A DNA stretch of 64,000 nt from contig MGMG01000081.1 of the NCBI GenBank assembly GCA_001796355.1, positions 196 through 64,195 of the forward strand, given 5' to 3'. The position numbers and the translations under genes are program-made. A model generated the notes under the pieces. The model saw only the letters and a list, made by a program, of their open reading frames with translations, made no database searches and was not told the DNA's origin. Position 1 is the stretch's first letter. Every line of letters begins with the position of its first letter. Shown here in pieces: positions 2 to 10,200 of this stretch. The stretch is from Chloroflexi bacterium GWB2_54_36 (GTDB lineage Bacteria > Chloroflexota > Anaerolineae > Anaerolineales > Anaerolineaceae).

Positions 2-469
2 CATCGGGACGCAGTAAAACTCATCGGCGTCCGGGTTGGTTTCGGGTGTGCAAAATTCTGGACGGTCATCCGATATGGCTACGCGAAATTTCAATGTTTT
101 TGCCAGCGTCGCAACTGCTTTTCCAACATGCCCGCCCCCAATCACCACGATCAATGGGCTCGGAATTATCGGTTCCACAAACACCTCCATCGTTCCACCG
201 CATACCCCGGCGTCGCCAGATTTTGGATCTACCATGCGGTATTTCAACAACCGGGTTTTCCCATCCACTAATGATTCAGCGGCTTCCTTCTTGATTCGGT
301 TCTCGACTTCTCCGCCACCAACCGTGCCGATAAAGCTGCCATCCTCATAGACCAGCATCTTGCTGCCTTCGTGGCGCGGCGTGGATCCCTGGGTGTCGAT
401 TATGGTACACAACGCGCCTGCCCGATGGTCGGTTTCCAACTCAAGAATCGCTTGATAAATATTCACCAT
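2..469 (-). CDS. xdhC: XdhC/CoxI-family molybdoenzyme maturation factor; partial, runs off the left edge
   Basis: Not in the ORF track. Manual translation from ATG at 469 gives MVNIYQAILELETDHRAGALCTIIDTQGSTPRHEGSKMLVYEDGSFIGTVGGGEVE...GVCGGTMEVFVEP...LIVVIGGGHVGKAVATLAKTLKFRVAISDDRPEF, with the XdhC motifs GSTPR, GTVGGG, CGG and GxGHV. Confidence 0.93.
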   Translation of the reverse strand, partial: MVNIYQAILELETDHRAGALCTIIDTQGSTPRHEGSKMLVYEDGSFIGTVGGGEVENRIKKEAAESLVDGKTRLLKYRMVDPKSGDAGVCGGTMEVFVEPIIPSPLIVVIGGGHVGKAVATLAKTLKFRVAISDDRPEFCTPETNPDADEFYCVPM

Positions 470-491: not shown

Positions 492-3400
492 TTAAGGGGT
501 GACTTTTTTCAATGCTCGCCAGATTCTTTCCGGCGTGGCGGGAATTTCAAGAACCGCAGCACCGCAGGCGTCCAAAATGGCGTTTCCCACGGCTGGCGCT
601 ACGCCATCCATGGGGATTTCAGCCACGGCCTTAACGCCGAATGGGTGCGAAGGTTCGTAGGTCTGCACAAAAATGGTCTCGAGCGCCGGCATTTCGTCCG
701 CCCGGAAGATATGGTAATCATCCAGGTCAGTCTCACGCGCCCGACCTTTTTCATCATACACCATTTCCTCGCACACCGCATAACCCAACGCCTGGGTCAT
801 CCCGCCCTCGATCTGACCGGAAGCGGTGATTGGATTAACGATGATGCCGGAATCAACTGCCATTACCAACCGGTCCACCACAACTTTGCCGGTCTCCACA
901 TCGACTGTGACTTCGGCAAACTGGGCGGCGAAGGGCGGCGGGGATACCGGCGAATAGTACGATCCGGTGCCCATAATTTGTTCCTGGTCGTCGTGGTGCA
1001 GCGCATTCAAAGCGATCTCTTGCATGGTTACTGCGCGGCCATCACGCGTACTAGCGTGTTTGTTACCCAGCACAATGTCGTCTTCCGTTACTTCTAGCCC
1101 TTTAGCCTGCTTATTAATCATCCTGGCTGCGCGGATTTTGATGCGTTCTGCTGCCATTTCAGCTGCTAGAGCCACCGCAGCGCCGGAGATATACGTAGTA
1201 CTGGAGGCATATGCCCCCTTATCGAAGGGGGTGAAGTCGGTATCCGAGGAATACACCAGAATGTCATCCACCGGAACGCCAAGCACCTCGGCTGCCATTT
1301 GCGCCAGAACCGTATCCGAACCGGTGCCAAGGTCGGTAGCGCCGACCAACAGGTTGAACGACCCATCATCATTCATTTTTATGCTAGCGCCGCCCATATC
1401 CAGATATGGGATAGCTGTCCCTTGCATGACGGTTGCCACACCGATTCCACGGCGCAAGTGCGGCTTGCCAGGTACAGCATGCCATTCAACGTTAGGATAT
1501 TTTTGATCCCAGCCAATGGCGGCTTTGGCTTGCCGGACGCACTCTTCCAGCCCGACGGTATGCACAATTTCCGGACGCGGTTCGCGGCCCTCACTCCAGG
1601 CAGTGCTAAAAGGATGCAGCTCGCCCGAACGCAGCGTATTTTTCAACCGGAAATCGATCGAATCCAAGCCAAGATCGCGCACAATGTGCTCGACCTGTCG
1701 TTCGAGCGGCCAAAATCCCTGCGGAACCCCGTAACCGCGGAACGCGCCGGCTGGCGGTGTATTGGTATACACCACATCGGCATAGAAGCGGATATTGGGT
1801 GACAGGCGGTATGGTCCATCACCAACATACAGCGCCATGGCTTTATGACCGGTATTGCCGGTCACCGTCAGGGCATGGCAGCCATAGGCGCCGGTGTCAG
1901 AGAGTGCATACATGGCATTGGCCGTTATCGTGCCGTCCAGCTTCACGCCGGTTTTCATGCGAACGCGCATTGGGTGGCGCGACCGGGCAGCGATAAATTC
2001 TTCCTCGCGAGTTGTCTCATAGATGACCGGGCGACCGGTGGCGATCGTCAGGTGGGCTGCCACATCCTCAATCAAAACTTCCTGTTTGCCGCCAAAACCA
2101 CCGCCAATGCGCGGTTTAATCACGCGGATGCGTTTAACCGGCAAGCCCAATACCGGGGCAAGAATGCGACGGGCATGGAAAGGTACCTGGGTGCTGGTGC
2201 GAATGACCAACCGGTCATCCTCGTCCCAGTAGGTAACCACCACATGCGGTTCGATGTGCGCCTGCTGCACCTTGGGTACCGTGTATTCTTCCTCGTAAAT
2301 CCGGTCAGCCTCGGCAAATCCCTTTTCGATATCGCCGATATCGATGCGAATTTCAGCTGCAACGTTTTTGCCCGGATTGGAGTCAGCAAAATTGACAAAC
2401 TCCGGCTCATCATGGATGCGGATGGCTCCGGGCTGCATGGACTCCCGTGAATCCAGAATCGCGGGCAGCTCTTCATATTCGACTTTGATCAATCGCAGCG
2501 CCTGTTCCGCAATTTTGGCAGTCTCGGCCGCGACAAAGGCTACCCGGTCACCCACAAAACGCACTTTCCGGTCCAGTGAAAAGGCGTCCAGCGGCCCGGG
2601 AATAGGGTCAGATTGGCCGGCGGTCGAATAGATAACCCGCGGAATATCTTTGTAGCTCAAAACCGCCGCGACGCCTGACAGTGCGCGGGCATCGCTCAGG
2701 TCAATGGACTTGATCCAGGCGTGGGCTAACGGCGAATGCAGCACTTTCGCCACCAACATACCGCGCTTCTCGATATCCGCGGAGAAGGCAGGCTTGCCCT
2801 GCACCAATTTGACCGCATCCACTTTCACCTCGGGGCGGCCTATATGGGTGCGGGGTTTCTCCCTGGCATCCTGCGAAGTCCATATCTTTGGCATCACTTG
2901 GGTCTGGCTGGTGGTTTCAGCCAGGCCAGCGCTGCTTTCCGGTTGGTCGCCGGGGAGCGGCATGCTGACCGGCCAACCTTGTGTCTCGGTTTCGGGGGTA
3001 CCCATGATGGGCGGAATCATTTCACCGCGCATGACGGCAGCAGCGCGCAAAATGGCCTGGACTGGCTTTAAATAGCCTGTGCAACGGCAAAGAATGCCGG
3101 AAATGGCGGCTCGGACTTCGGCTTCAGTAGGATTCGGGTTTTTCTCGATCAGTGCGCGGGCTGCCAGTGCGAAAGCCGGCGTGCAGTAGCCGCATTGAAT
3201 GGCGCCACTCTCCACCAATGCCTGCTGGATCGGATGCAGTCCGGCTGTTTTTTTCCACCCCTGCTCAGGGTGCTCGCCCATGGCTTCAATCGTCTCCACC
3301 TGGTGACCGGTAACCTGAGCAGCCAGCAAGGTACACGAGTTGATGGGCTTCTTATCCAACAAAACTGTGCAGGCGCCGCATTCACCCTTGGCGCATCCGC

Positions 3401-3524
3401 CGGATTTGACGCCAAACATCCCTTGCCGGCGTAAAACGGAGAGCAGCGACTCGGATGGATCAGCTTCCCATTCGACCAGATCGCCGTTCAGCGTGAAGTA
3501 AATCATCATAGTTGCTTCTTTCAT
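492..3524 (-). CDS. Xanthine dehydrogenase-family molybdoenzyme with fused 2x[2Fe-2S] and Mo-cofactor domains (XdhD/YgfN-like)
   Basis: N-terminal Fe-S motifs GCAKGECGACTV, QCGYCTP and LCRCTGY. Mo-domain motifs STQVP, GGGFGGKQ, AFRGYG, GQIEGG and the catalytic-Glu region KAVAEIP. The start could also be the ATGATG at 3509/3506. Confidence 0.95.
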   Translation of the reverse strand: MKEATMMIYFTLNGDLVEWEADPSESLLSVLRRQGMFGVKSGGCAKGECGACTVLLDKKPINSCTLLAAQVTGHQVETIEAMGEHPEQGWKKTAGLHPIQQALVESGAIQCGYCTPAFALAARALIEKNPNPTEAEVRAAISGILCRCTGYLKPVQAILRAAAVMRGEMIPPIMGTPETETQGWPVSMPLPGDQPESSAGLAETTSQTQVMPKIWTSQDAREKPRTHIGRPEVKVDAVKLVQGKPAFSADIEKRGMLVAKVLHSPLAHAWIKSIDLSDARALSGVAAVLSYKDIPRVIYSTAGQSDPIPGPLDAFSLDRKVRFVGDRVAFVAAETAKIAEQALRLIKVEYEELPAILDSRESMQPGAIRIHDEPEFVNFADSNPGKNVAAEIRIDIGDIEKGFAEADRIYEEEYTVPKVQQAHIEPHVVVTYWDEDDRLVIRTSTQVPFHARRILAPVLGLPVKRIRVIKPRIGGGFGGKQEVLIEDVAAHLTIATGRPVIYETTREEEFIAARSRHPMRVRMKTGVKLDGTITANAMYALSDTGAYGCHALTVTGNTGHKAMALYVGDGPYRLSPNIRFYADVVYTNTPPAGAFRGYGVPQGFWPLERQVEHIVRDLGLDSIDFRLKNTLRSGELHPFSTAWSEGREPRPEIVHTVGLEECVRQAKAAIGWDQKYPNVEWHAVPGKPHLRRGIGVATVMQGTAIPYLDMGGASIKMNDDGSFNLLVGATDLGTGSDTVLAQMAAEVLGVPVDDILVYSSDTDFTPFDKGAYASSTTYISGAAVALAAEMAAERIKIRAARMINKQAKGLEVTEDDIVLGNKHASTRDGRAVTMQEIALNALHHDDQEQIMGTGSYYSPVSPPPFAAQFAEVTVDVETGKVVVDRLVMAVDSGIIVNPITASGQIEGGMTQALGYAVCEEMVYDEKGRARETDLDDYHIFRADEMPALETIFVQTYEPSHPFGVKAVAEIPMDGVAPAVGNAILDACGAAVLEIPATPERIWRALKKVTP

Positions 3525-3542: not shown

Positions 3543-4301
3543 CTAGACAGCCTGTTCCTGACCCATCAGGCGCAGCACCAACCGGGTTCCAGCCTCTTGC
3601 CGGTACTCGGCGCTGGCCCATGGATCGGCTGCCCGTGACAAAGCATCGCGTACTGCAGCTTCCGCTCCGCCTAGTTCAGGGGCATCCAGTGCCAGAATCG
3701 GCGCTGAACCGAATCCGCCCAGAGTAATCCGAGTGCGGCCAGACGGCCACTTTGCGACTGCTGTGCAGATGACAGGCAAATCATCCGGAGTGCGGCCAAT
3801 GGTATCAAATGCCAGACTGGCGTTGAGCGGAATCTGCACCCTGTTGATGAACAGAGCATTCACTGGCGGCTGGCGCAGCGCAAACCATTCACCCAGCGCT
3901 TGATCCTGATCTACCGGCAGCCAGTGAAGCAAAGCATCGAGCGCCAGCAGCGCAGCGCCGAAGGTCGATCGCCCTCCACTGGAGACCAATGTACCGGCGA
4001 CGGTCGCCTGCTGGCGTAAATTTTGATTTGCCTCCAACCGAATGGCTGATTTTAGGCCGGGTTGGAGATAGTCCAAATTGGCCAGTGACGCTAACGTGGT
4101 AGTTGCCCCAATTTGCAGGAATTGACCTTCCTGAGTCAGACTGTTTAGACCGAGCGATTGCAGATCGACAACAGAGATCGTTTGAGCAGACATTTGGCTC
4201 AAGGTCACTCCGCCGCCCAAGGGGCGGTATTCGCCGTCGGTGCGCGACAAAATTTCCAGCGCCTCTGCCAAATCTTTTGGCCGATAGTAGGCTTTAATCA
4301 T
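3543..4301 (-). CDS. FAD-binding subunit of a xanthine dehydrogenase-family enzyme (YgfM-like)
   Basis: YYRPKDLAEAL, PLGGGVTL, LQIGATTTL, NQNLRQQATVAGTL and C-terminal ASAEYR; lies next to the Mo subunit. Confidence 0.88.
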   Translation of the reverse strand: MIKAYYRPKDLAEALEILSRTDGEYRPLGGGVTLSQMSAQTISVVDLQSLGLNSLTQEGQFLQIGATTTLASLANLDYLQPGLKSAIRLEANQNLRQQATVAGTLVSSGGRSTFGAALLALDALLHWLPVDQDQALGEWFALRQPPVNALFINRVQIPLNASLAFDTIGRTPDDLPVICTAVAKWPSGRTRITLGGFGSAPILALDAPELGGAEAAVRDALSRAADPWASAEYRQEAGTRLVLRLMGQEQAV

Positions 4302-4777
4302 GCACCATCTCCATCAGGATACACTTTCCAATTTTCAGGGTCCAATTCCAGTTTTCCGGCCAGTTCGGTGGGCGCCTCCATCAGGAGTGCGCGCGCATTG
4401 GCCAAAACCTGCCCCTGCTCATTTTCTATTCTACTCGTTGCGTGAATAATTTCACCTTTATCTTCGGTCAATTCACCGATCACCTTTAGGGGTGTATTCA
4501 GCGGCACCGGTTTGCGGTAACGCACTTCCAGCGATGCAGTCACCACAATCCGCCGGGAACCATTGGCGCCCAGCACCGTGCGAGTGGCTGCCTCGTCGAG
4601 TACCGACGCCAGAATTCCTCCGTGAGCAATCCCGGGGAATCCCTGAAATTGCTCCGAAACCATCCAGTTGGCTTCGACACGCCCGGGAGCGGTATCGTAA
4701 AATTTTAGTTGTAATCCAAATTGATTATCGACCCCGCAAACGAAGCAATGCCGAGCGTTGGCTTGCTTCTGCCTCAT
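4298..4777 (-). CDS. PaaI-family hotdog-fold thioesterase
   Basis: [32 protein letters not shown] and [14 protein letters not shown]; 4-nt overlaps with both neighbours. Confidence 0.9.
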
Positions 4778-5772
4778 AGCTGCGCAAAAGTATCGATAAG
4801 CACCTTGATATCTCCACCGACCGGGTAGAGGATCGGGCAGGTGCAGCCATTTTTACGATATTCAGCCACTTTGGCGCGGGCTTCTTCGGGTGTACCAGAG
4901 GCAGTGATGCGGGTAATCAGGTCCTCTGGAACCAGATGTTTGGCTTTGTCGATCTGTTCCCTTGTAGCAGGCCAGCCCAAAATTGACTGAATTTGAGCAA
5001 CCACATCCATCGAAACTCCGGAGGCTTTTGCGATGTGCGGCTGCTGAGCCAGGTATTGGGTTAATAAGCCGCGGGTGGAGTCAATCGCTTTGTCATGGTC
5101 GAGATCCACCGAACACACGATCAACTGCGGGCGATCCATATCTTCAACCCGGCGGCCGGATTTTTTGGCGCCAGCATCCAGCAGTTCGAGCGCTTTACTG
5201 TTGTAGCTTGGCTCGACGCAATAATTCAATACCACGCCGTCAGCAATTTCGCCCGTCATTTCCATCATATTGTCGCCGGTAGCGCCAATCATGATCGGCA
5301 CATTGCGCGGTTCGCGCCGTCCATGGACTACATCCAACTCGATCCCAGATACATGGACGAACTCACCATCAAAGCTGACCCGTTCCATGTTCAGCAGGCG
5401 GCGCAGAACAGTTACCGTCTCGCGCATGGCGGTCAGCGGTTTTCTACGATCAATACCCACGTTTTTGGCTAGCGGATCCCACCAGGCGCCAATACCGCAA
5501 ATGATGCGGTCGGGAGCCAGATCGTCCAGGGTTAAAAAGGTCGAAGCCAGCAACCCGATATTACGCGTCCAGTTGTTGATGACGCCGGATCCGACTTTCA
5601 ACGTTTTCGTGACTGCAGCGTAAGCGGCCATAGGAACGATCGCATCACGGACCAGCCGGCTTTCGGCCTGCCAGACCGCTTCAAAACCGCGTTCCTCGGC
5701 ATAACGAACATAATCCAGTCCGTCGCGAAGATCGTGAGCATCCTGCAGATAAAGTGCTACTCTTTCACTCAT
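4774..5772 (-). CDS. LLM-class (luciferase-like) oxidoreductase, Mer-like, probably F420-dependent
   Basis: [25 protein letters not shown] (cf. Mer GPGVTNPYTR), GIGA, IMIGATG and [10 protein letters not shown]; clustered with cofC, cofE and npdG. Confidence 0.88.
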
Positions 5773-5831: not shown

Positions 5832-6446
5832 CTAGGGATCTACCTGGAAAGCTTCAATTTGTCGAAGTAAAGCCAGGTCTTCTGGCTTATCGATATCAAG
5901 ACCCAAGGTAGTCAGATGACATAATTCGACCTGAATTCCCTTACTTTGAGCCTTCTTTAAATTCTTTTCATACGAGCCGGATCCGATGGTGCAATCGATG
6001 ATGTCCGGTGGATTCATATAGATGGCGTTGGTTCCGTCGTTATGCCGGTCGGGGGCGATAACTATAGCGGGTGTTCCTTTTACCAGCGACAGCATCTTCT
6101 CGATGTCCCGGCGGGAGACCAGCGGCAAATCGGCGGACAGGATTAACAAGCTCTCGGCATTGTACATCTTCGCCACAACCACTGCCCTCTTCAACGCGAT
6201 TTTCAGATCAGGCTGTCCGTCTTCCTGCAGCGTCCGTGCGCCATATTCCCGGGCCATTGCCAGGGCAGCCGAGTCGCTGCTGACAACCAGGATGTGGTCG
6301 ATTGCCGGGACTTCTTTCAAAGTCCTCAGGGTTTGACTCAACATGGTAAAGATCAGTAATGCTCTTTCATCTTCCGTTAATACGTCTGACAAACCAGATT
6401 TCGCTTTTCGCAGCGGTTTTACCGGTACAATCGCCCAAAGGCTCAT
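5832..6446 (-). CDS. cofC: 2-phospho-L-lactate/PEP guanylyltransferase (F420 biosynthesis)
   Basis: [37 protein letters not shown] and [11 protein letters not shown]. Confidence 0.92.
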
Positions 6447-6568: not shown

Positions 6569-7117
6569 TTATCCCTGGCTGCCGAGAAGTGGAAAACGAT
6601 ACAGGCCTCCATGGTCATCGCCGTGAAAATACCCGAGATAAATGTGATCCAGCTTGATTTCGATCCGCAGCGCTACGGTGCTGAGGTTGGCTACCAGACA
6701 GGCGATTGCTTCTTTCATCTCCGCTTTGCCGTACAGAATCGAGATGTGCGGTACCCATTCTTCCGGGGAAAAATAGCGGTTTACAGACCTGGCCAGAGGG
6801 GACAGCGCCTCCCAAAGGGTTGCGTTCAGGGCAGATAACGCCGGCGTACGGGTTACCGACAGATAAACGACCGGCTCAGCGCCGGTGAAGACGCCCACCC
6901 CATCGATGCGGGTAGTGACGGGAGCAAAGGTCCTGGCGATTGTGCGCATTCGCAGCTCAACTTCATCCAGGAAATAGGATTCGGCTCCCTGCCACGAGAG
7001 GTGCAATGGCCACTGGAGCGGGGCGGGGTCAGGTCCGCAACCTGCCAGAGCAACACCCCGAATTTGCTCCACTTCACGCGCTGATTCACTCGCCAGTTCA
7101 GTAATGATCGCGTACAA
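6569..7117 (-). CDS. 2H phosphoesterase (2'-5' RNA ligase superfamily)
   Basis: Two HxS motifs (PLHLSW, VPHISI) about 85 aa apart; TTG start preceded by GGAG. Confidence 0.78.
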   Translation of the reverse strand: MYAIITELASESAREVEQIRGVALAGCGPDPAPLQWPLHLSWQGAESYFLDEVELRMRTIARTFAPVTTRIDGVGVFTGAEPVVYLSVTRTPALSALNATLWEALSPLARSVNRYFSPEEWVPHISILYGKAEMKEAIACLVANLSTVALRIEIKLDHIYLGYFHGDDHGGLYRFPLLGSQG

Positions 7118-7128
7118 CGCAGGCTCCC

Positions 7129-7899
7129 TTAGCGGAACAGGTCCAATTCAAGCGGCCGGTGAAGCTCTTCAAACTTTCCCTCGCGCAAAGGGAATGGAAA
7201 GCCACGAACGTGCACCGCCGGAACGCGCTCATTCGCCTGTCCCATAACAAGAGACGCTGAACCAGCCAACTCGTCGGCCGCTGCTACTTGCGTCACCCGC
7301 AAGGTATACCCGAACATATCCTGGTGACCGCGTAAATCTACCAGGCCTGGCATTCCGGAGAAACCGATCGAGATGCCAACTGTGCCAATCCGCCAGGCGC
7401 GCCCATGCGAGTCGATGATCATGACCCCGATCTTGGCTCCTGTCTGCGTTTCAATCGAACTACGAATCCGGGCAGCCGATTCGTCAGCGTTTTTAGGCAG
7501 CAGCAAGACCCAATCATCCGGATTGCCGTAGCGTCCCTCGACGTTGGAATGGTCGATGCCCGCATTGGCGCACACAAACCCGGCCTTGTGCTCGACGATT
7601 ATGGTGCCCGGGCGGACGCGCAGCACGCTGCGGCTCTCCTGTAACATCAACTCTACCAGTCGGGGGTCTTTCTCGGCTGCAGCGCCCAGTTCGATTGCCC
7701 GCTGCGAGGGTTTAACATCATTCAGATTGACCAGGCGGTTTTCAGATTTGGACACGATCTTTTGCGCCAGCACCAGGATATCGCCATCCAATAGCTTCAG
7801 CCCGGCTGCTACCATTTTTTCGAGCAGGATGGCCGGCAGATCGTCACCTGGTTGGATGAGCGGGATTTCGGAAATTGGAGTAAAAATCAGGGGCTGCAT
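7129..7899 (-). CDS. cofE: Coenzyme F420-0:L-glutamate ligase (single domain)
   Basis: DGDILVLAQKIVSKSE, VCANAGIDHSN, IIDSHGRAWRIG and ADELAGSASLVMGQANE. Confidence 0.95.
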   Translation of the reverse strand: MQPLIFTPISEIPLIQPGDDLPAILLEKMVAAGLKLLDGDILVLAQKIVSKSENRLVNLNDVKPSQRAIELGAAAEKDPRLVELMLQESRSVLRVRPGTIIVEHKAGFVCANAGIDHSNVEGRYGNPDDWVLLLPKNADESAARIRSSIETQTGAKIGVMIIDSHGRAWRIGTVGISIGFSGMPGLVDLRGHQDMFGYTLRVTQVAAADELAGSASLVMGQANERVPAVHVRGFPFPLREGKFEELHRPLELDLFR

Positions 7900-7915: not shown

Positions 7916-8593
7916 CTATGAACGCGGTAAACCGGTGATGCGAATGCCGGCGTCCTGGACGCCGAATTGTTTATTCAAACCGATCAGGACCGAGGTTAAC
8001 CCCTCCACCACGACAGAATTTTCAATCACGCCGCCGCTCCAACCAACCAGACCAGCGTCTTTAACCAGGCCGATAACTTTCTCTCGCGCCTCTTTCGGGC
8101 CGCAAACCAAAACATCACAGGCCACTTCATCGTCATGGATCAAGTGTTCATAGGAAATATTCTGGAACGCGGATACAACTTGCACATCATCACCTAATAT
8201 CGCTTGCGCTTGTTGTGCTGCACTGCCTTCCGGTGGCATCTGAACCTTGGCCACTTTGGGGGGAACCAGAGGTACGGTAACATCTATAAAGATTTTACCC
8301 CGTACATAGGGTTTTAAGAGCTCACACATATCTACATGCACGCCAAAGGGAACCGTCAAAACGACGATATCGGCGCGGATTGCGGCCTTTTCATTTTCCA
8401 GGCCAGATACCACATCCTGTTTAGCAAGCATTAAGTTCACATCACTGGCCGCTGCCTGAGCCTTTTCGGCCTGGCGCGAACCGATGATGATCGTATGTCC
8501 GGCTTTTGCCCAGCGGTATGCCAGCCCTTTACCTTCTTTTCCAGTACCGCCAATAATTCCAATCGTGTATCTTTCTGCGCCAGTGTCAGTCAT
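7916..8593 (-). CDS. npdG: NADPH-dependent F420 reductase (Fno/NpdG)
   Basis: Rossmann IGIIGGTGKEGKGLA, NADP-type GSR, VVSAFQNIS and VEGLTSVLIGLN. Confidence 0.92.
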   Translation of the reverse strand: MTDTGAERYTIGIIGGTGKEGKGLAYRWAKAGHTIIIGSRQAEKAQAAASDVNLMLAKQDVVSGLENEKAAIRADIVVLTVPFGVHVDMCELLKPYVRGKIFIDVTVPLVPPKVAKVQMPPEGSAAQQAQAILGDDVQVVSAFQNISYEHLIHDDEVACDVLVCGPKEAREKVIGLVKDAGLVGWSGGVIENSVVVEGLTSVLIGLNKQFGVQDAGIRITGLPRS

Positions 8594-8611: not shown

Positions 8612-9961
8612 TTAATGGTTTTGAGCGATCGTGTTATACCGTTTCCACGTTTCTTTGGAAAGCCGGCGCGCCTCGTACGTGATTTTTTCTTCGTCCAAAG
8701 TGAGCAACTGCCGGTCGCGCATGAGCACTTTCCCGCCAACCATGGTGGTAGTCACCATGCTCTCATGAAAGCCAAAAATGATATGCCACGGCAAGTTGCC
8801 AGCGTCTAGTTCGGTAAAGGGGTGATAGTCAACAAAAATCAGGTCCGCTTCCGCCCCTGGCGCCAGAACACCGATAGGCCCGACGCCAAATTGCTGCTCT
8901 GCCAACAGTGCGTTGTTGTAAACTGCCATCTGGACCACATCGGTGCCAGACATGCGACGCGGGTCATGGTTCCATAGTTTATGCGCCAGGTAAGCGGTCT
9001 TCCATTCCTGCCACATTTGATTGGAGAAACCGTCATTCCCCAGACAAACCTTGATGCCCGCTCGCATCATGGCTTCCGGTTGAGACATGCCAACTGCGTT
9101 ATTCATGTTAGACCGCGGTTGATGGGTAACCCAGGTCTGACTGGCTGCCAGCAGTTCGATTTCACGGACATCGACGTGCACGGCGTGCACCGCTATCGAG
9201 CGCGGACCAAGAATACCATGCCGCTCCAGCCGGTCCACCACCCGCTCACCGCATTTTTGCAAGCTGTCGTATTCATCCACCGGATGTTCGGCGACATGGA
9301 CATGGAAACCGACATCATCCGGGCAAGCCACCCGGCAGGCCTCAAGGGTTTTTTCCGACAGGGTCAAGCTGGCATGCAGGCCAAAAGTAGCTGCCAGCTT
9401 GCCGCTTTTATCCGCCTTTACGGCGTTGATAAAGCGGACATTCTCGGCGATGCCATCTTTTGTGCCCTGCTCCCCCTCGCGATCGGTGACTTCATAGCAG
9501 AGCGAGGTGCGAACCCCGGCTTCCTGGACTGCCAGCGCTACTTCCGTCAGTGAACCACTGATTGCATTAGGCGAAGCATGGTGGTCTATTAGCGTGGTTG
9601 TGCCGTGTTTAACCGCATCGATCAGACATACCAGCGCCGAGTAGCGTACATCCTCCAGCGTGAGGGCTTTATCCAATGACCACCATAATTTTCCCAGAAT
9701 TTCAGGAAAATCTTTGGGCGCCGGTCCCGGGATTCCCATACCCCGCGAGAATGCTCCATAGAAATGAGTGTGCGCGCAGATATTCCCAGGCATGATATAT
9801 TGGCTATGCGCATCCAGACGTTCTTCCTGCGGGTATTTTTCGAGGATTTCGGTTTGTCTGGCAATTTCAACGATCTTGCTTTCTACAATTCGCAGCGCGT
9901 ACCCTTCAAGAATGCGATTAGGTTGTTCCCAGGTGATAATCTTTCCGTTGGTAAGTATCAT
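8612..9961 (-). CDS. ssnA: SsnA-like metal-dependent amidohydrolase
   Basis: MPGNICAHTHFYG, LWWSLDKAL, GTTTLIDHHASP, FGLHASLTL, HVHVAE, HQPRSNMNNAVG and LGNDG; RBS GGAGGG upstream. Confidence 0.88.
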   Translation of the reverse strand: MILTNGKIITWEQPNRILEGYALRIVESKIVEIARQTEILEKYPQEERLDAHSQYIMPGNICAHTHFYGAFSRGMGIPGPAPKDFPEILGKLWWSLDKALTLEDVRYSALVCLIDAVKHGTTTLIDHHASPNAISGSLTEVALAVQEAGVRTSLCYEVTDREGEQGTKDGIAENVRFINAVKADKSGKLAATFGLHASLTLSEKTLEACRVACPDDVGFHVHVAEHPVDEYDSLQKCGERVVDRLERHGILGPRSIAVHAVHVDVREIELLAASQTWVTHQPRSNMNNAVGMSQPEAMMRAGIKVCLGNDGFSNQMWQEWKTAYLAHKLWNHDPRRMSGTDVVQMAVYNNALLAEQQFGVGPIGVLAPGAEADLIFVDYHPFTELDAGNLPWHIIFGFHESMVTTTMVGGKVLMRDRQLLTLDEEKITYEARRLSKETWKRYNTIAQNH

Positions 9962-9999: not shown

Positions 10000-10027
10000 A
10001 CAAAACCGAAAGGTAAACCTTTCGGTT
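10000..10027 (-). terminator. Terminator-like hairpin in the ssnA leader
   Basis: Perfect 10-bp stem AACCGAAAGG-TTTA-CCTTTCGGTT running into TTGTGT on the minus strand, about 40 nt upstream of the ssnA ATG. It could instead be an operator. Confidence 0.6.
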
Positions 10028-10102
10028 AAACGACCTGCTATTCGCATCAGGCGAACCAGGATAAATCGGAACAGTGAAAAACGAAGGGAATTTGATTGTC
10101 AT

Positions 10103-10200
10103 AGGATCGGTGGAGAAGGAAGGCGGCGCTTTTCGACGGGCACTTCTCATCCGGCCCGACGCCAGCCAAGCAAGTGCTTGAACTGACCACCGAACCCTGC
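10103..10200 (-). ncRNA. Candidate structured leader RNA (riboswitch-like, no family recognised)
   Basis: Closing stem AGGGUUCGGUGG/CCACCGAUCCU, hairpin CAAGC-ACUU-GCUUG, nested stems GGCGU/GCGCC and CGGGC/GCCCG, and complementary loops ACUU/AAGU. G-U pairs occur only in the minus-strand reading. Confidence 0.4.

Follow-up and report, generated by a model that had tools for sequence, protein, structure and literature searches.

In the present work we analysed a stretch of 64,000 nucleotides (hereafter the window) from contig MGMG01000081.1 of Chloroflexi bacterium GWB2_54_36, a member of the Anaerolineaceae, and we propose that one of its genes probably encodes an F420-dependent reductase of 2,8-dioxopurine. 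This gene (positions 4774-5772, minus strand, ATG start) specifies a protein of 332 amino acids, a Mer-like luciferase-like oxidoreductase of the F420 class that we call LLM and regard as a candidate F420H2:2,8-dioxopurine reductase. It would thereby take the place of YgfK/DOPOR and of clostridial UacX, to neither of which it is homologous. Replacement of YgfK was the role given to the protein in the original prediction, and comparative genomics supports it with fair confidence: the LLM is of the F420 class but is not Mer, its genome lacks YgfK and UacX, it is mutually exclusive with YgfK and it co-occurs with CofE. Moreover, the LLM is encoded together with SsnA and XdhD, the remaining genes of the pathway are found in the genome, and no other reductase was found there. 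The proposal is based on the family and fold of the protein, its conserved F420 backstop, the loss of the catalytic residues of Mer, gene order, genome content and phyletic patterns; from these we infer which substrate is reduced, at which atom, and that F420 is actually used.

In a recent study, Li et al. (2025, bioRxiv and Life Metab, PMC12507026) coloured the neighbourhoods of SsnA for PF00296 and named a "putative F420-dependent yanthine reductase" in clusters from Chloroflexota. The LLM is the same thing as the PF00296 protein of their Fig. 3c and Discussion, found within 15 genes of SsnA in Chloroflexota, and the hypothesis that it replaces YgfK is therefore a rediscovery, since it had already been deduced from gene neighbourhoods. 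An F420-dependent LLM in urate clusters is not mentioned by Liu et al. (2025), and our search of the full-text literature found no paper with a biochemical test of an F420-dependent yanthine reductase. What was already known is thus a published prediction; what we add is stronger comparative evidence (mutual exclusivity across 401 genomes, compared with neighbourhood colouring only), an active-site signature, a puzzle about the source of F420 and a candidate regulatory RNA.

An F420-class protein that resembles Mer

The LLM is a member of the PF00296 superfamily, with a match far beyond chance (E = 2.7e-62, 211.4 bits for a cut-off of 27.9) that spans the entire TIM barrel (positions 18-313 of the 314 in the profile). 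When it was compared with NCBIfam, the best 15 matches were all F420-type LLM families (57-170 bits), whereas the families that use flavin mononucleotide (FMN) reached 25-35 bits, with E about 1e-8 at best.

In the original prediction, a ten-residue motif had been aligned by eye with the bulge motif of Mer, methylenetetrahydromethanopterin reductase, and had been described as typical of F420-binding LLMs. We observed that this beta3 bulge or F420 backstop motif (residues 61-70, positions 5563-5592, minus strand) indeed aligns without gaps, by HMMER, with GPGVTNPYVR of Mer from M. jannaschii (jMer; 8qpl, 8qq8, 8qpm; phmmer and hmmsearch against PDB) and with GPGVTNSYTR of Mer from M. barkeri (1z69). 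Inside the motif and under the central ring of F420, Mer has a non-prolyl cis-peptide, Gly61-Val62, a feature common to the F420-dependent enzymes FGD and Adf (Gehl et al. 2024, PMC11094777). The counterpart of this pair in the LLM, Gly63-Val64, is unchanged across 15 orthologs, and in the AlphaFold2 model of the LLM beta3 is interrupted at residues 63-64. The backstop motif is thus conserved, and a cis-peptide is predicted at Gly63-Val64.

The four solved Mer enzymes are the top matches of the LLM in PDB (phmmer, E = 9e-37 to 3e-26), and a profile search of the same database finds Mer at E = 4e-44. The AlphaFold2 model, calculated from an alignment of 67 sequences including relatives at 30-50% identity, has eight strands plus helices and a predicted local distance difference test score (pLDDT) of 94.8; a shallower input of 15 near-identical orthologs gave a pLDDT of 57 and that model was discarded. 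With the retained model, Foldseek placed eight Mer chains on top (TM-score 0.87-0.90, root-mean-square deviation 2.3-2.6 Å), followed by FGD1, Adf and FGD2; ranks 1-23 are all F420 enzymes and the FMN enzymes come lower. Sequence and predicted fold place the protein nearest Mer and other F420 enzymes, that is, among the F420-class LLMs, and coenzyme F420 is the cofactor it most likely uses in its candidate function. FGD1, FGD2 and Adf share its superfamily and cofactor class but have only 18-21% identity to it (FGD and Adf), with different pocket residues and a different gene context.

Homologs at 96-98% identity bear names that put the host in Bellilinea (Anaerolineaceae, Chloroflexota). At NCBI the homologs are called 'LLM class flavin-dependent oxidoreductase', and in other source databases some of them are called 'methylenetetrahydromethanopterin reductase'. 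The first of these names, like the Pfam name 'luciferase-like monooxygenase', would suit an FMN-dependent monooxygenase that lies beside F420 genes by coincidence. We consider this very improbable, since the scores of FMN-type families (25-35 bits) lie well below those of F420 types (100-170 bits), the LLM retains the F420 backstop motif and its phyletic link with CofE, described below, is very strong. In addition, the Anaerolineae hosts are strict anaerobes according to the literature, which weighs against an FMN monooxygenase that uses O2.

The second name calls for a comparison with Mer itself. The LLM is Mer-like but not Mer, because it scores below the cut-off of both Mer equivalogs (170 bits for NF002619, cut-off 276; 167.2 bits for TIGR03555, cut-off 348.7). 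The substrate-side and pterin-contacting residues of Mer were taken as named by Gehl et al. (2024, PMC11094777). We observed that the position of jMer Asp96 is occupied by Trp98 in the LLM, with Asp99 adjacent (GIGAWWDPL versus GIGPGDKAT), and that Phe233 and Val230 of jMer are replaced by Gln239 and Leu236. The catalytic Glu6 of jMer, at the end of beta1, would correspond to Tyr8, and Val8 to Gln10; this mapping is indirect since HMMER left the first 19 residues of the LLM unaligned to Mer, with a single sequence or a profile alike, and it relies on an unchanging offset of +2, taken from the aligned helix 1, on the position of beta1 in the model (residues 6-8) and on the family pattern FGIEF/IGIGF. 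All these replacements are invariant in the orthologs.

Tyr8, Trp68, Trp97-Trp98-Asp/Glu99, Asn183-Tyr184 and Tyr240 are also invariant in the orthologs, and this set is mostly retained in outgroups down to about 43% identity. From these residues, and because position 8 is Gly in most other LLMs, the predicted pocket is a distinct one, rich in aromatic and amide side chains. Asn183 aligns with jMer position 178, given as Gln178 in PMC11094777 and as Asn in the PDB sequence as counted here.

A genuine Mer, or an F420-dependent methylene-tetrahydrofolate reductase of one-carbon (C1) metabolism, is scarcely credible. Although NCBIfam, PDB and the fold comparison all give Mer as the best match and some databases name the homologs accordingly, both equivalog cut-offs are missed, and the catalytic and pterin-contacting residues are replaced by invariant ones. 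Moreover, MetF (PF02219) is encoded elsewhere in the same genome (C25:12946-13818), and the LLM gene is surrounded by genes for purine and F420 metabolism rather than for C1 metabolism. We ruled out this identity because of the missed cut-offs, the replaced catalytic residues and the presence of MetF. The original prediction had remarked that the window has no methanopterin C1 genes, and the annotated open reading frames of the window agree with this, for the window only and with no genome-wide search. What the two proteins share is the (beta-alpha)8 LLM fold, about 28% identity over the full length (8qpl, 1z69, 1ezw, 1f07), the Gly-Val backstop after beta3 and, presumably, a reaction in which F420H2 gives a hydride to a nitrogen-bound sp2 carbon. 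Their contexts differ, Mer belonging to methanogenic C1 metabolism and the LLM to bacterial purine and F420 genes in Anaerolineae that also have MetF. F420H2-dependent imine reductases of lincomycin and pyrrolobenzodiazepine biosynthesis, which belong to the LLM superfamily, offer a precedent for reduction of a C=N bond in this fold.

Gene neighbourhood and distribution in Anaerolineae

The gene lies in a co-oriented run on the minus strand, ssnA-fno-cofE-2H-cofC-LLM-hotdog-ygfM-like-xdhD-like-xdhC, whose members are separated by 11-122 nucleotides or overlap by 4. The first gene (8612-9961) encodes the amidohydrolase SsnA, which would open the ring after reduction and which scores above both of its cut-offs (NF005540, 520 bits, cut-off 444; TIGR03314, 483 bits, cut-off 455.5). 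It is followed by Fno/NpdG, an NADPH-dependent F420 reductase that would supply F420H2 (7916-8593; TIGR01915, 196.6 bits, cut-off 149.8), and by CofE, the F420-0:gamma-glutamyl ligase (7129-7899; TIGR01916, 258.5 bits, cut-off 180.65). Between cofE and the gene of CofC, of the 2-phospho-L-lactate guanylyltransferase family (5832-6446; TIGR03552, 153.5 bits, cut-off 105), a gene for a 2H phosphoesterase-family protein is wedged, 11 nucleotides past cofE (6569-7117; PF13563, E = 6.5e-17). The latter is present in 22 of the 80 related loci described below and is no replacement for cofD, since it is found in loci with and without cofD.

Beyond the LLM gene come those of a hotdog-fold (4HBT/PaaI-like) protein (4298-4777; PF03061, E = 4.8e-11) and of a YgfM-like subunit of a molybdoenzyme, which binds flavin adenine dinucleotide (FAD) (3543-4301; PF00941, E = 1.4e-17; weak match to TIGR03312; 27% identity to E. 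coli YgfM by tblastn). The hotdog gene, present in 21 of the 80 loci, overlaps the stop of the LLM gene and the start of the FAD-subunit gene by 4 nucleotides each; a thioester substrate for its product is not expected in the known urate pathway. The next gene (492-3524) has the Pfam domain set of a fused 2Fe-2S and molybdopterin dehydrogenase of XdhD type, which would convert urate to 2,8-dioxopurine. Its top match in E. coli is XdhD (36% identity over 1031 amino acids, 534 bits); the XdhD-specific insertion is retained, and Glu645 aligns with Glu606 of E. coli XdhD, a residue tied to the 6-dehydroxylation of urate (Li et al. 2025, PMC12507026). Last comes an XdhC/YqeB-like molybdenum cofactor insertion factor that runs off the window (2-469; NF045664, TIGR02964, and tblastn with E. 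coli YqeB).

In the rest of the genome, whose assembly is 94.5% complete, we did not find YgfK, either with the TIGR03315 profile or by tblastn, nor did we find UacX: the sole PF01180 protein (C40:19937-20944) is unlike UacX. It belongs to PRK07565 ('DHOD-like protein'), and we rejected it as a hidden UacX because it has no Fe-S domain, shares 26% identity with a UacX-like protein and is encoded beside a PFOR-like gene. A second purine cluster was found on contig C80 (L086: 1716-3137, 3972-7699, 7708-12903, 13019-16254, 17034-19993). It encodes a D-hydantoinase (TIGR02033, 533 bits), YgeY (TIGR03526, 482 bits), an OTC/YgeW-like carbamoyltransferase, carbamate kinase, adenine deaminase, 8-oxoguanine deaminase, a GntR regulator, a Bmp-type ABC transporter and two PALP-fold enzymes; no canonical YgeX could be recognised in this cluster. 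By annotation, the urate pathway described by Liu et al. (2025) and by Li et al. (2025) is complete in the genome apart from the reductase, and the LLM is the sole unassigned redox enzyme across the two purine clusters.

A relative of the LLM is found in no fewer than 588 species genomes, and synteny was analysed in the best 80 loci, nearly all from Anaerolineales and at 80-98% identity. Of the 59 loci that extend 7 kb or more upstream, 55 have ssnA, fno, cofE and cofC on the same strand 5' of the LLM gene, and an XdhD ortholog (at least 66% identity) is found downstream in 27 of the 80. The most constant neighbour is cofC, upstream of the LLM gene in 73 loci and also in outgroups; cofD lies directly 5' of cofC in 57 loci, and 17 of the 80 have a gene for an FbiB-C-like nitroreductase as well. 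The median identities in these loci are 84% for the LLM, 63% for SsnA, 62% for CofE and 48% for CofC, a comparison that is biased because the loci were picked by LLM similarity. In five loci a second, long-branched lineage of genuine SsnA (552 bits) is encoded immediately upstream of the LLM. Outgroup LLMs at 44-50% identity retain the cofC/cofD/cofE/fno neighbourhood, and the gene of one of them (48% identity) overlaps that of a TRZ/ATZ-type amidohydrolase that is not SsnA.

The adjacency of cofC and the LLM gene, the most conserved link, could mean that the protein serves the cofactor, either by reducing dehydro-F420-0 in place of the C-terminal domain of FbiB or in the maturation or repair of F420. 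The co-occurrence of the LLM with CofE and the lack of an FbiB-C-like nitroreductase gene in the window would fit such a role. Nevertheless, we hold it to be quite improbable, since the LLM and the FbiB-C-like nitroreductase are encoded together in 17 related loci, and since a Bellilinea clade without cofD, which cannot make F420-0, has kept the LLM at 88-100% identity. Such a role would also leave unexplained both the exclusivity with YgfK and the direct adjacency of ssnA and the LLM gene in the second SsnA lineage. Cofactor maturation was therefore rejected as the main role of the LLM, which persists without cofD and coexists with FbiB-C-like genes.

The distribution of the LLM, SsnA and YgfK was followed in 401 evenly sampled Anaerolineae genomes (G011-G410), with E<1e-100 and at least 67% identity for an LLM ortholog, E<=1e-80 for SsnA and E<1e-130 for true YgfK. 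An LLM ortholog is encoded in 186 genomes, SsnA in 313 and true YgfK in 68, and not a single genome encodes both the LLM and YgfK. Among the 313 genomes with SsnA, the LLM is present in 173, YgfK in 62 and neither of them in 78; conversely, SsnA accompanies the LLM in 173 of 186 genomes (93%). At the level of families, the LLM occurs in 28 and YgfK in 14, with one family shared, in different genera. In the SsnA tree, 54 LLM-adjacent SsnAs fall in one clade (100/98), nested among those of the YgfK, UacX and other types.

We inspected seven of the genomes that have SsnA and neither reductase. In three of them, a UacX-like gene coding for a DHO_dh domain and two [4Fe-4S] domains adjoins ssnA and is followed by yqeC-mocA (L095:7586-10287, L097:9007-11723 and also L098). 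It thus occupies the slot held elsewhere by YgfK (ssnA-reductase-yqeC/mocA), true YgfK often being encoded next to ssnA (for example at G155:C17:81106-85921). Three alternative putative reductases are found beside the same hydrolase within one class, the Anaerolineae. Chloroflexota have been said to lack YgfK and UacX (Li et al. 2025, PMC12507026), which is not strictly right. Indeed, the exclusivity of the LLM and YgfK is informative because 68 of the 401 Anaerolineae have YgfK and others have UacX-like genes.

The same data leave some room for an F420-dependent reductase of the purine operon that acts on another substrate, such as xanthine, 6,8-dioxopurine, an 8-oxopurine, a pterin-like heterocycle or a later intermediate, 2,8-dioxopurine being reduced by something unrecognised. 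Context says only that the LLM works with SsnA, XdhD and F420. The outgroup LLM paired with another amidohydrolase suggests that the wider subfamily is associated with different ring hydrolases and presumably with different heterocycles; besides, 78 genomes have SsnA without the LLM or YgfK, and four of the seven inspected have no reductase gene beside ssnA. However, the SsnA of the window scores above the equivalog cut-off of the enzyme that acts on reduced 2,8-dioxopurine, the LLM and YgfK are strictly exclusive, and the two purine clusters contain no other candidate reductase. We therefore regard another substrate as unlikely, though as the most serious of the alternatives, and reduction of 2,8-dioxopurine as the probable role.

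Two observations were made outside this pattern. Directly 3' of outgroup LLM genes lies a gene for a protein of about 820 amino acids without a Pfam match (L103:1891-4356, L106:9002-11458), adjoined in L106 by XdhC_CoxI and Metallophos genes; this protein may be an unrecognised partner enzyme. Furthermore, two loci assigned to other lineages, L059 (JBLNAU010000309.1, a Syntrophothermus bin) and L067 (JBLMZU010000041.1, a Bacteroidota bin), encode an LLM 83-84% identical to the Anaerolineae ortholog. In L059 it is accompanied by ssnA and the usual F420 genes, while in L067 it lies at the contig start and no neighbouring match was found; both bins are probably contaminated.

Proposed reaction and supply of F420

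In the reaction that we propose, the XdhD-type molybdoenzyme and its FAD subunit would remove the 6-oxo group of urate, and Fno would reduce F420 with NADPH. The LLM would then reduce 2,8-dioxopurine (isoxanthine, 'yanthine') by two electrons, with loss of aromaticity: a hydride would leave C5 of F420H2 and be accepted by C6 in the N1=C6 bond of the substrate. A residue of the pocket (Tyr8, Asp99 or Asn183) would donate the proton, and tautomerisation would protonate C5 to give the 5,6-dihydro form. The resulting amidine would be hydrolysed at C4 by SsnA to ureidomethyl-hydantoin, pulling the unfavourable reduction forward, and the hydantoinase, YgeY, carbamoyltransferase, carbamate kinase and pyridoxal phosphate-dependent enzymes encoded on C80 would complete the route. 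The potential of F420, about -340 mV, is adequate for a reduction pulled in this way by SsnA. Ureidomethyl-hydantoin is the product obtained with YgfK and SsnA, and that reduction needs the pull of SsnA (Li et al. 2025, PMC12507026). YgfK is NADPH-dependent and NADPH-specific (Liu et al. 2025); on this account, Fno and the LLM would together be equivalent to a two-protein NADPH:2,8-dioxopurine oxidoreductase.

YgfK/DOPOR of E. coli and C. sporogenes (Liu et al. 2025, Li et al. 2025) and the LLM have the same partners, namely SsnA, XdhD/YgfM and maturation genes, the same presumed reaction and, in Anaerolineae, a strictly complementary distribution. Yet they are non-homologous: YgfK has about 1030 amino acids with Fe-S, FMN and FAD/NADPH domains, whereas the LLM, with its 332 residues, is a single domain that has no Fe-S cluster and depends on a separate Fno and on diffusible F420. 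UacX, which Li et al. (2025) proposed as a PydA-like isoxanthine reductase of clostridia, is an alternative for the same slot next to ssnA; unlike the LLM, it is an FMN/Fe-S enzyme of an unrelated fold family (PF01180) that is thought to be ferredoxin-linked.

The link with F420 was examined in the same 401 genomes through CofE. The LLM and CofE are both encoded in 171 genomes, the LLM only in 15, CofE only in 23 and neither in 192 (odds ratio 95), and CofE is found in just one of the 68 genomes with YgfK. Judged by this co-occurrence, the LLM is largely confined to organisms with F420 machinery, though the host genome itself has neither FO synthase nor CofD. FO synthase (CofH) was found in none of 11 genomes, namely the host and ten relatives (those of loci L005-L010, L012, L015, L033 and L060), two closed chromosomes included, and CofD was found nowhere in the genomes of the host and of its three closest relatives (L005, L006 and L007), which form the Bellilinea clade. 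Despite the loss of cofD, the genes of CofC, CofE, Fno and the LLM are intact in this clade. For the supply of F420, the one explanation that we can offer, and that the data suggest, is salvage, either of FO or, in Bellilinea, of complete F420. In two closed chromosomes of metagenome-assembled genomes (MAGs) from long reads, cofD is split over two frames (G006:C1:1935962-1936865, G007:C1:53880-54766), either by a frameshift error or as a pseudogene.

Several points weigh against the LLM being the reductase of 2,8-dioxopurine. The substrate specificity of an LLM cannot be read from its sequence, and the tightest neighbour of this candidate reductase is cofC rather than ssnA. In some families the genes of the LLM, SsnA and CofE lie 70-170 kb apart, as in the closed genome G023, and 13 genomes encode the LLM without SsnA, although we consider most of these to be incomplete MAGs. 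The SsnA tree points to no more than a few displacements, and since independent events are few and the statistics carry no correction for phylogeny, the association is weaker than the Fisher p of 1.5e-26 implies. As for the cofactor, the host genome lacks FO synthase and CofD, and the F420 genes need not serve this LLM alone since two more F420-class LLMs, both above their cut-offs, are encoded in the genome (C61:14033-15130, TIGR03619, 216 bits; C96:63285-64223, TIGR03560, 264 bits).

We put forward a more ambitious version of the proposal tentatively, as a possible but doubtful one. According to it, the LLM would be the first F420H2-dependent reductase of a purine ring, would form a two-protein system with Fno and would operate in bacteria unable to make the deazaflavin head group, whose anaerobic purine fermentation would rely on FO or F420 scavenged from neighbours, methanogens for example, the operon being switched by an undescribed riboswitch for a metabolite of the purine pathway. 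If the assignment of the LLM is true, there would be three unrelated solutions for the hardest step of urate degradation: YgfK, UacX and the LLM, which use NADPH, ferredoxin and F420, respectively. F420 would also gain a role in the primary purine catabolism of anaerobic Chloroflexota that are abundant in digesters, in sediments and below the surface. Being small, single-domain and free of Fe-S clusters, the LLM might moreover be easier to engineer into uricolytic probiotics than YgfK with its 1030 amino acids, although F420 would be required.

Leader RNA upstream of ssnA

At the head of the operon, upstream of ssnA, we found a conserved three-stem leader RNA that looks like a candidate for an undescribed riboswitch (10089-10196, minus strand; 86.7 bits with the covariance model R1); no Rfam family matches it. 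The RNA has the invariant cores GGUGGUC, GGCGUCGGG and CCCGUCGAAAAGCGCC and two variable hairpins with compensatory changes. In the alignment, 94% of cells are paired and 9 of the 20 pairs have compensatory changes. Between this motif and the start of ssnA lies a 10-bp hairpin followed by UUUUGUGU (10004-10027, minus strand; centroid hairpin, z-score -2.7), which is predicted to be a terminator-like expression platform.

The host genome contains a single strong copy of the leader. With the covariance model, 12 full copies were found in related loci, every one at an operon head; copies are located at L005:5575-5682, L007:6001-6115, L008:4873-4967, L010:4825-4916, L015:4780-4880, L021:1201-1307, L026:121-215, L028:2080-2186, L029:1488-1599, L037:159-267 and L052:1128-1236. 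In six of these loci (L021, L026, L028, L029, L037 and L052) the copy lies well upstream of ssnA, and in L026, L029 and L037 it is found just 5' of a molybdoenzyme-like match that precedes ssnA.

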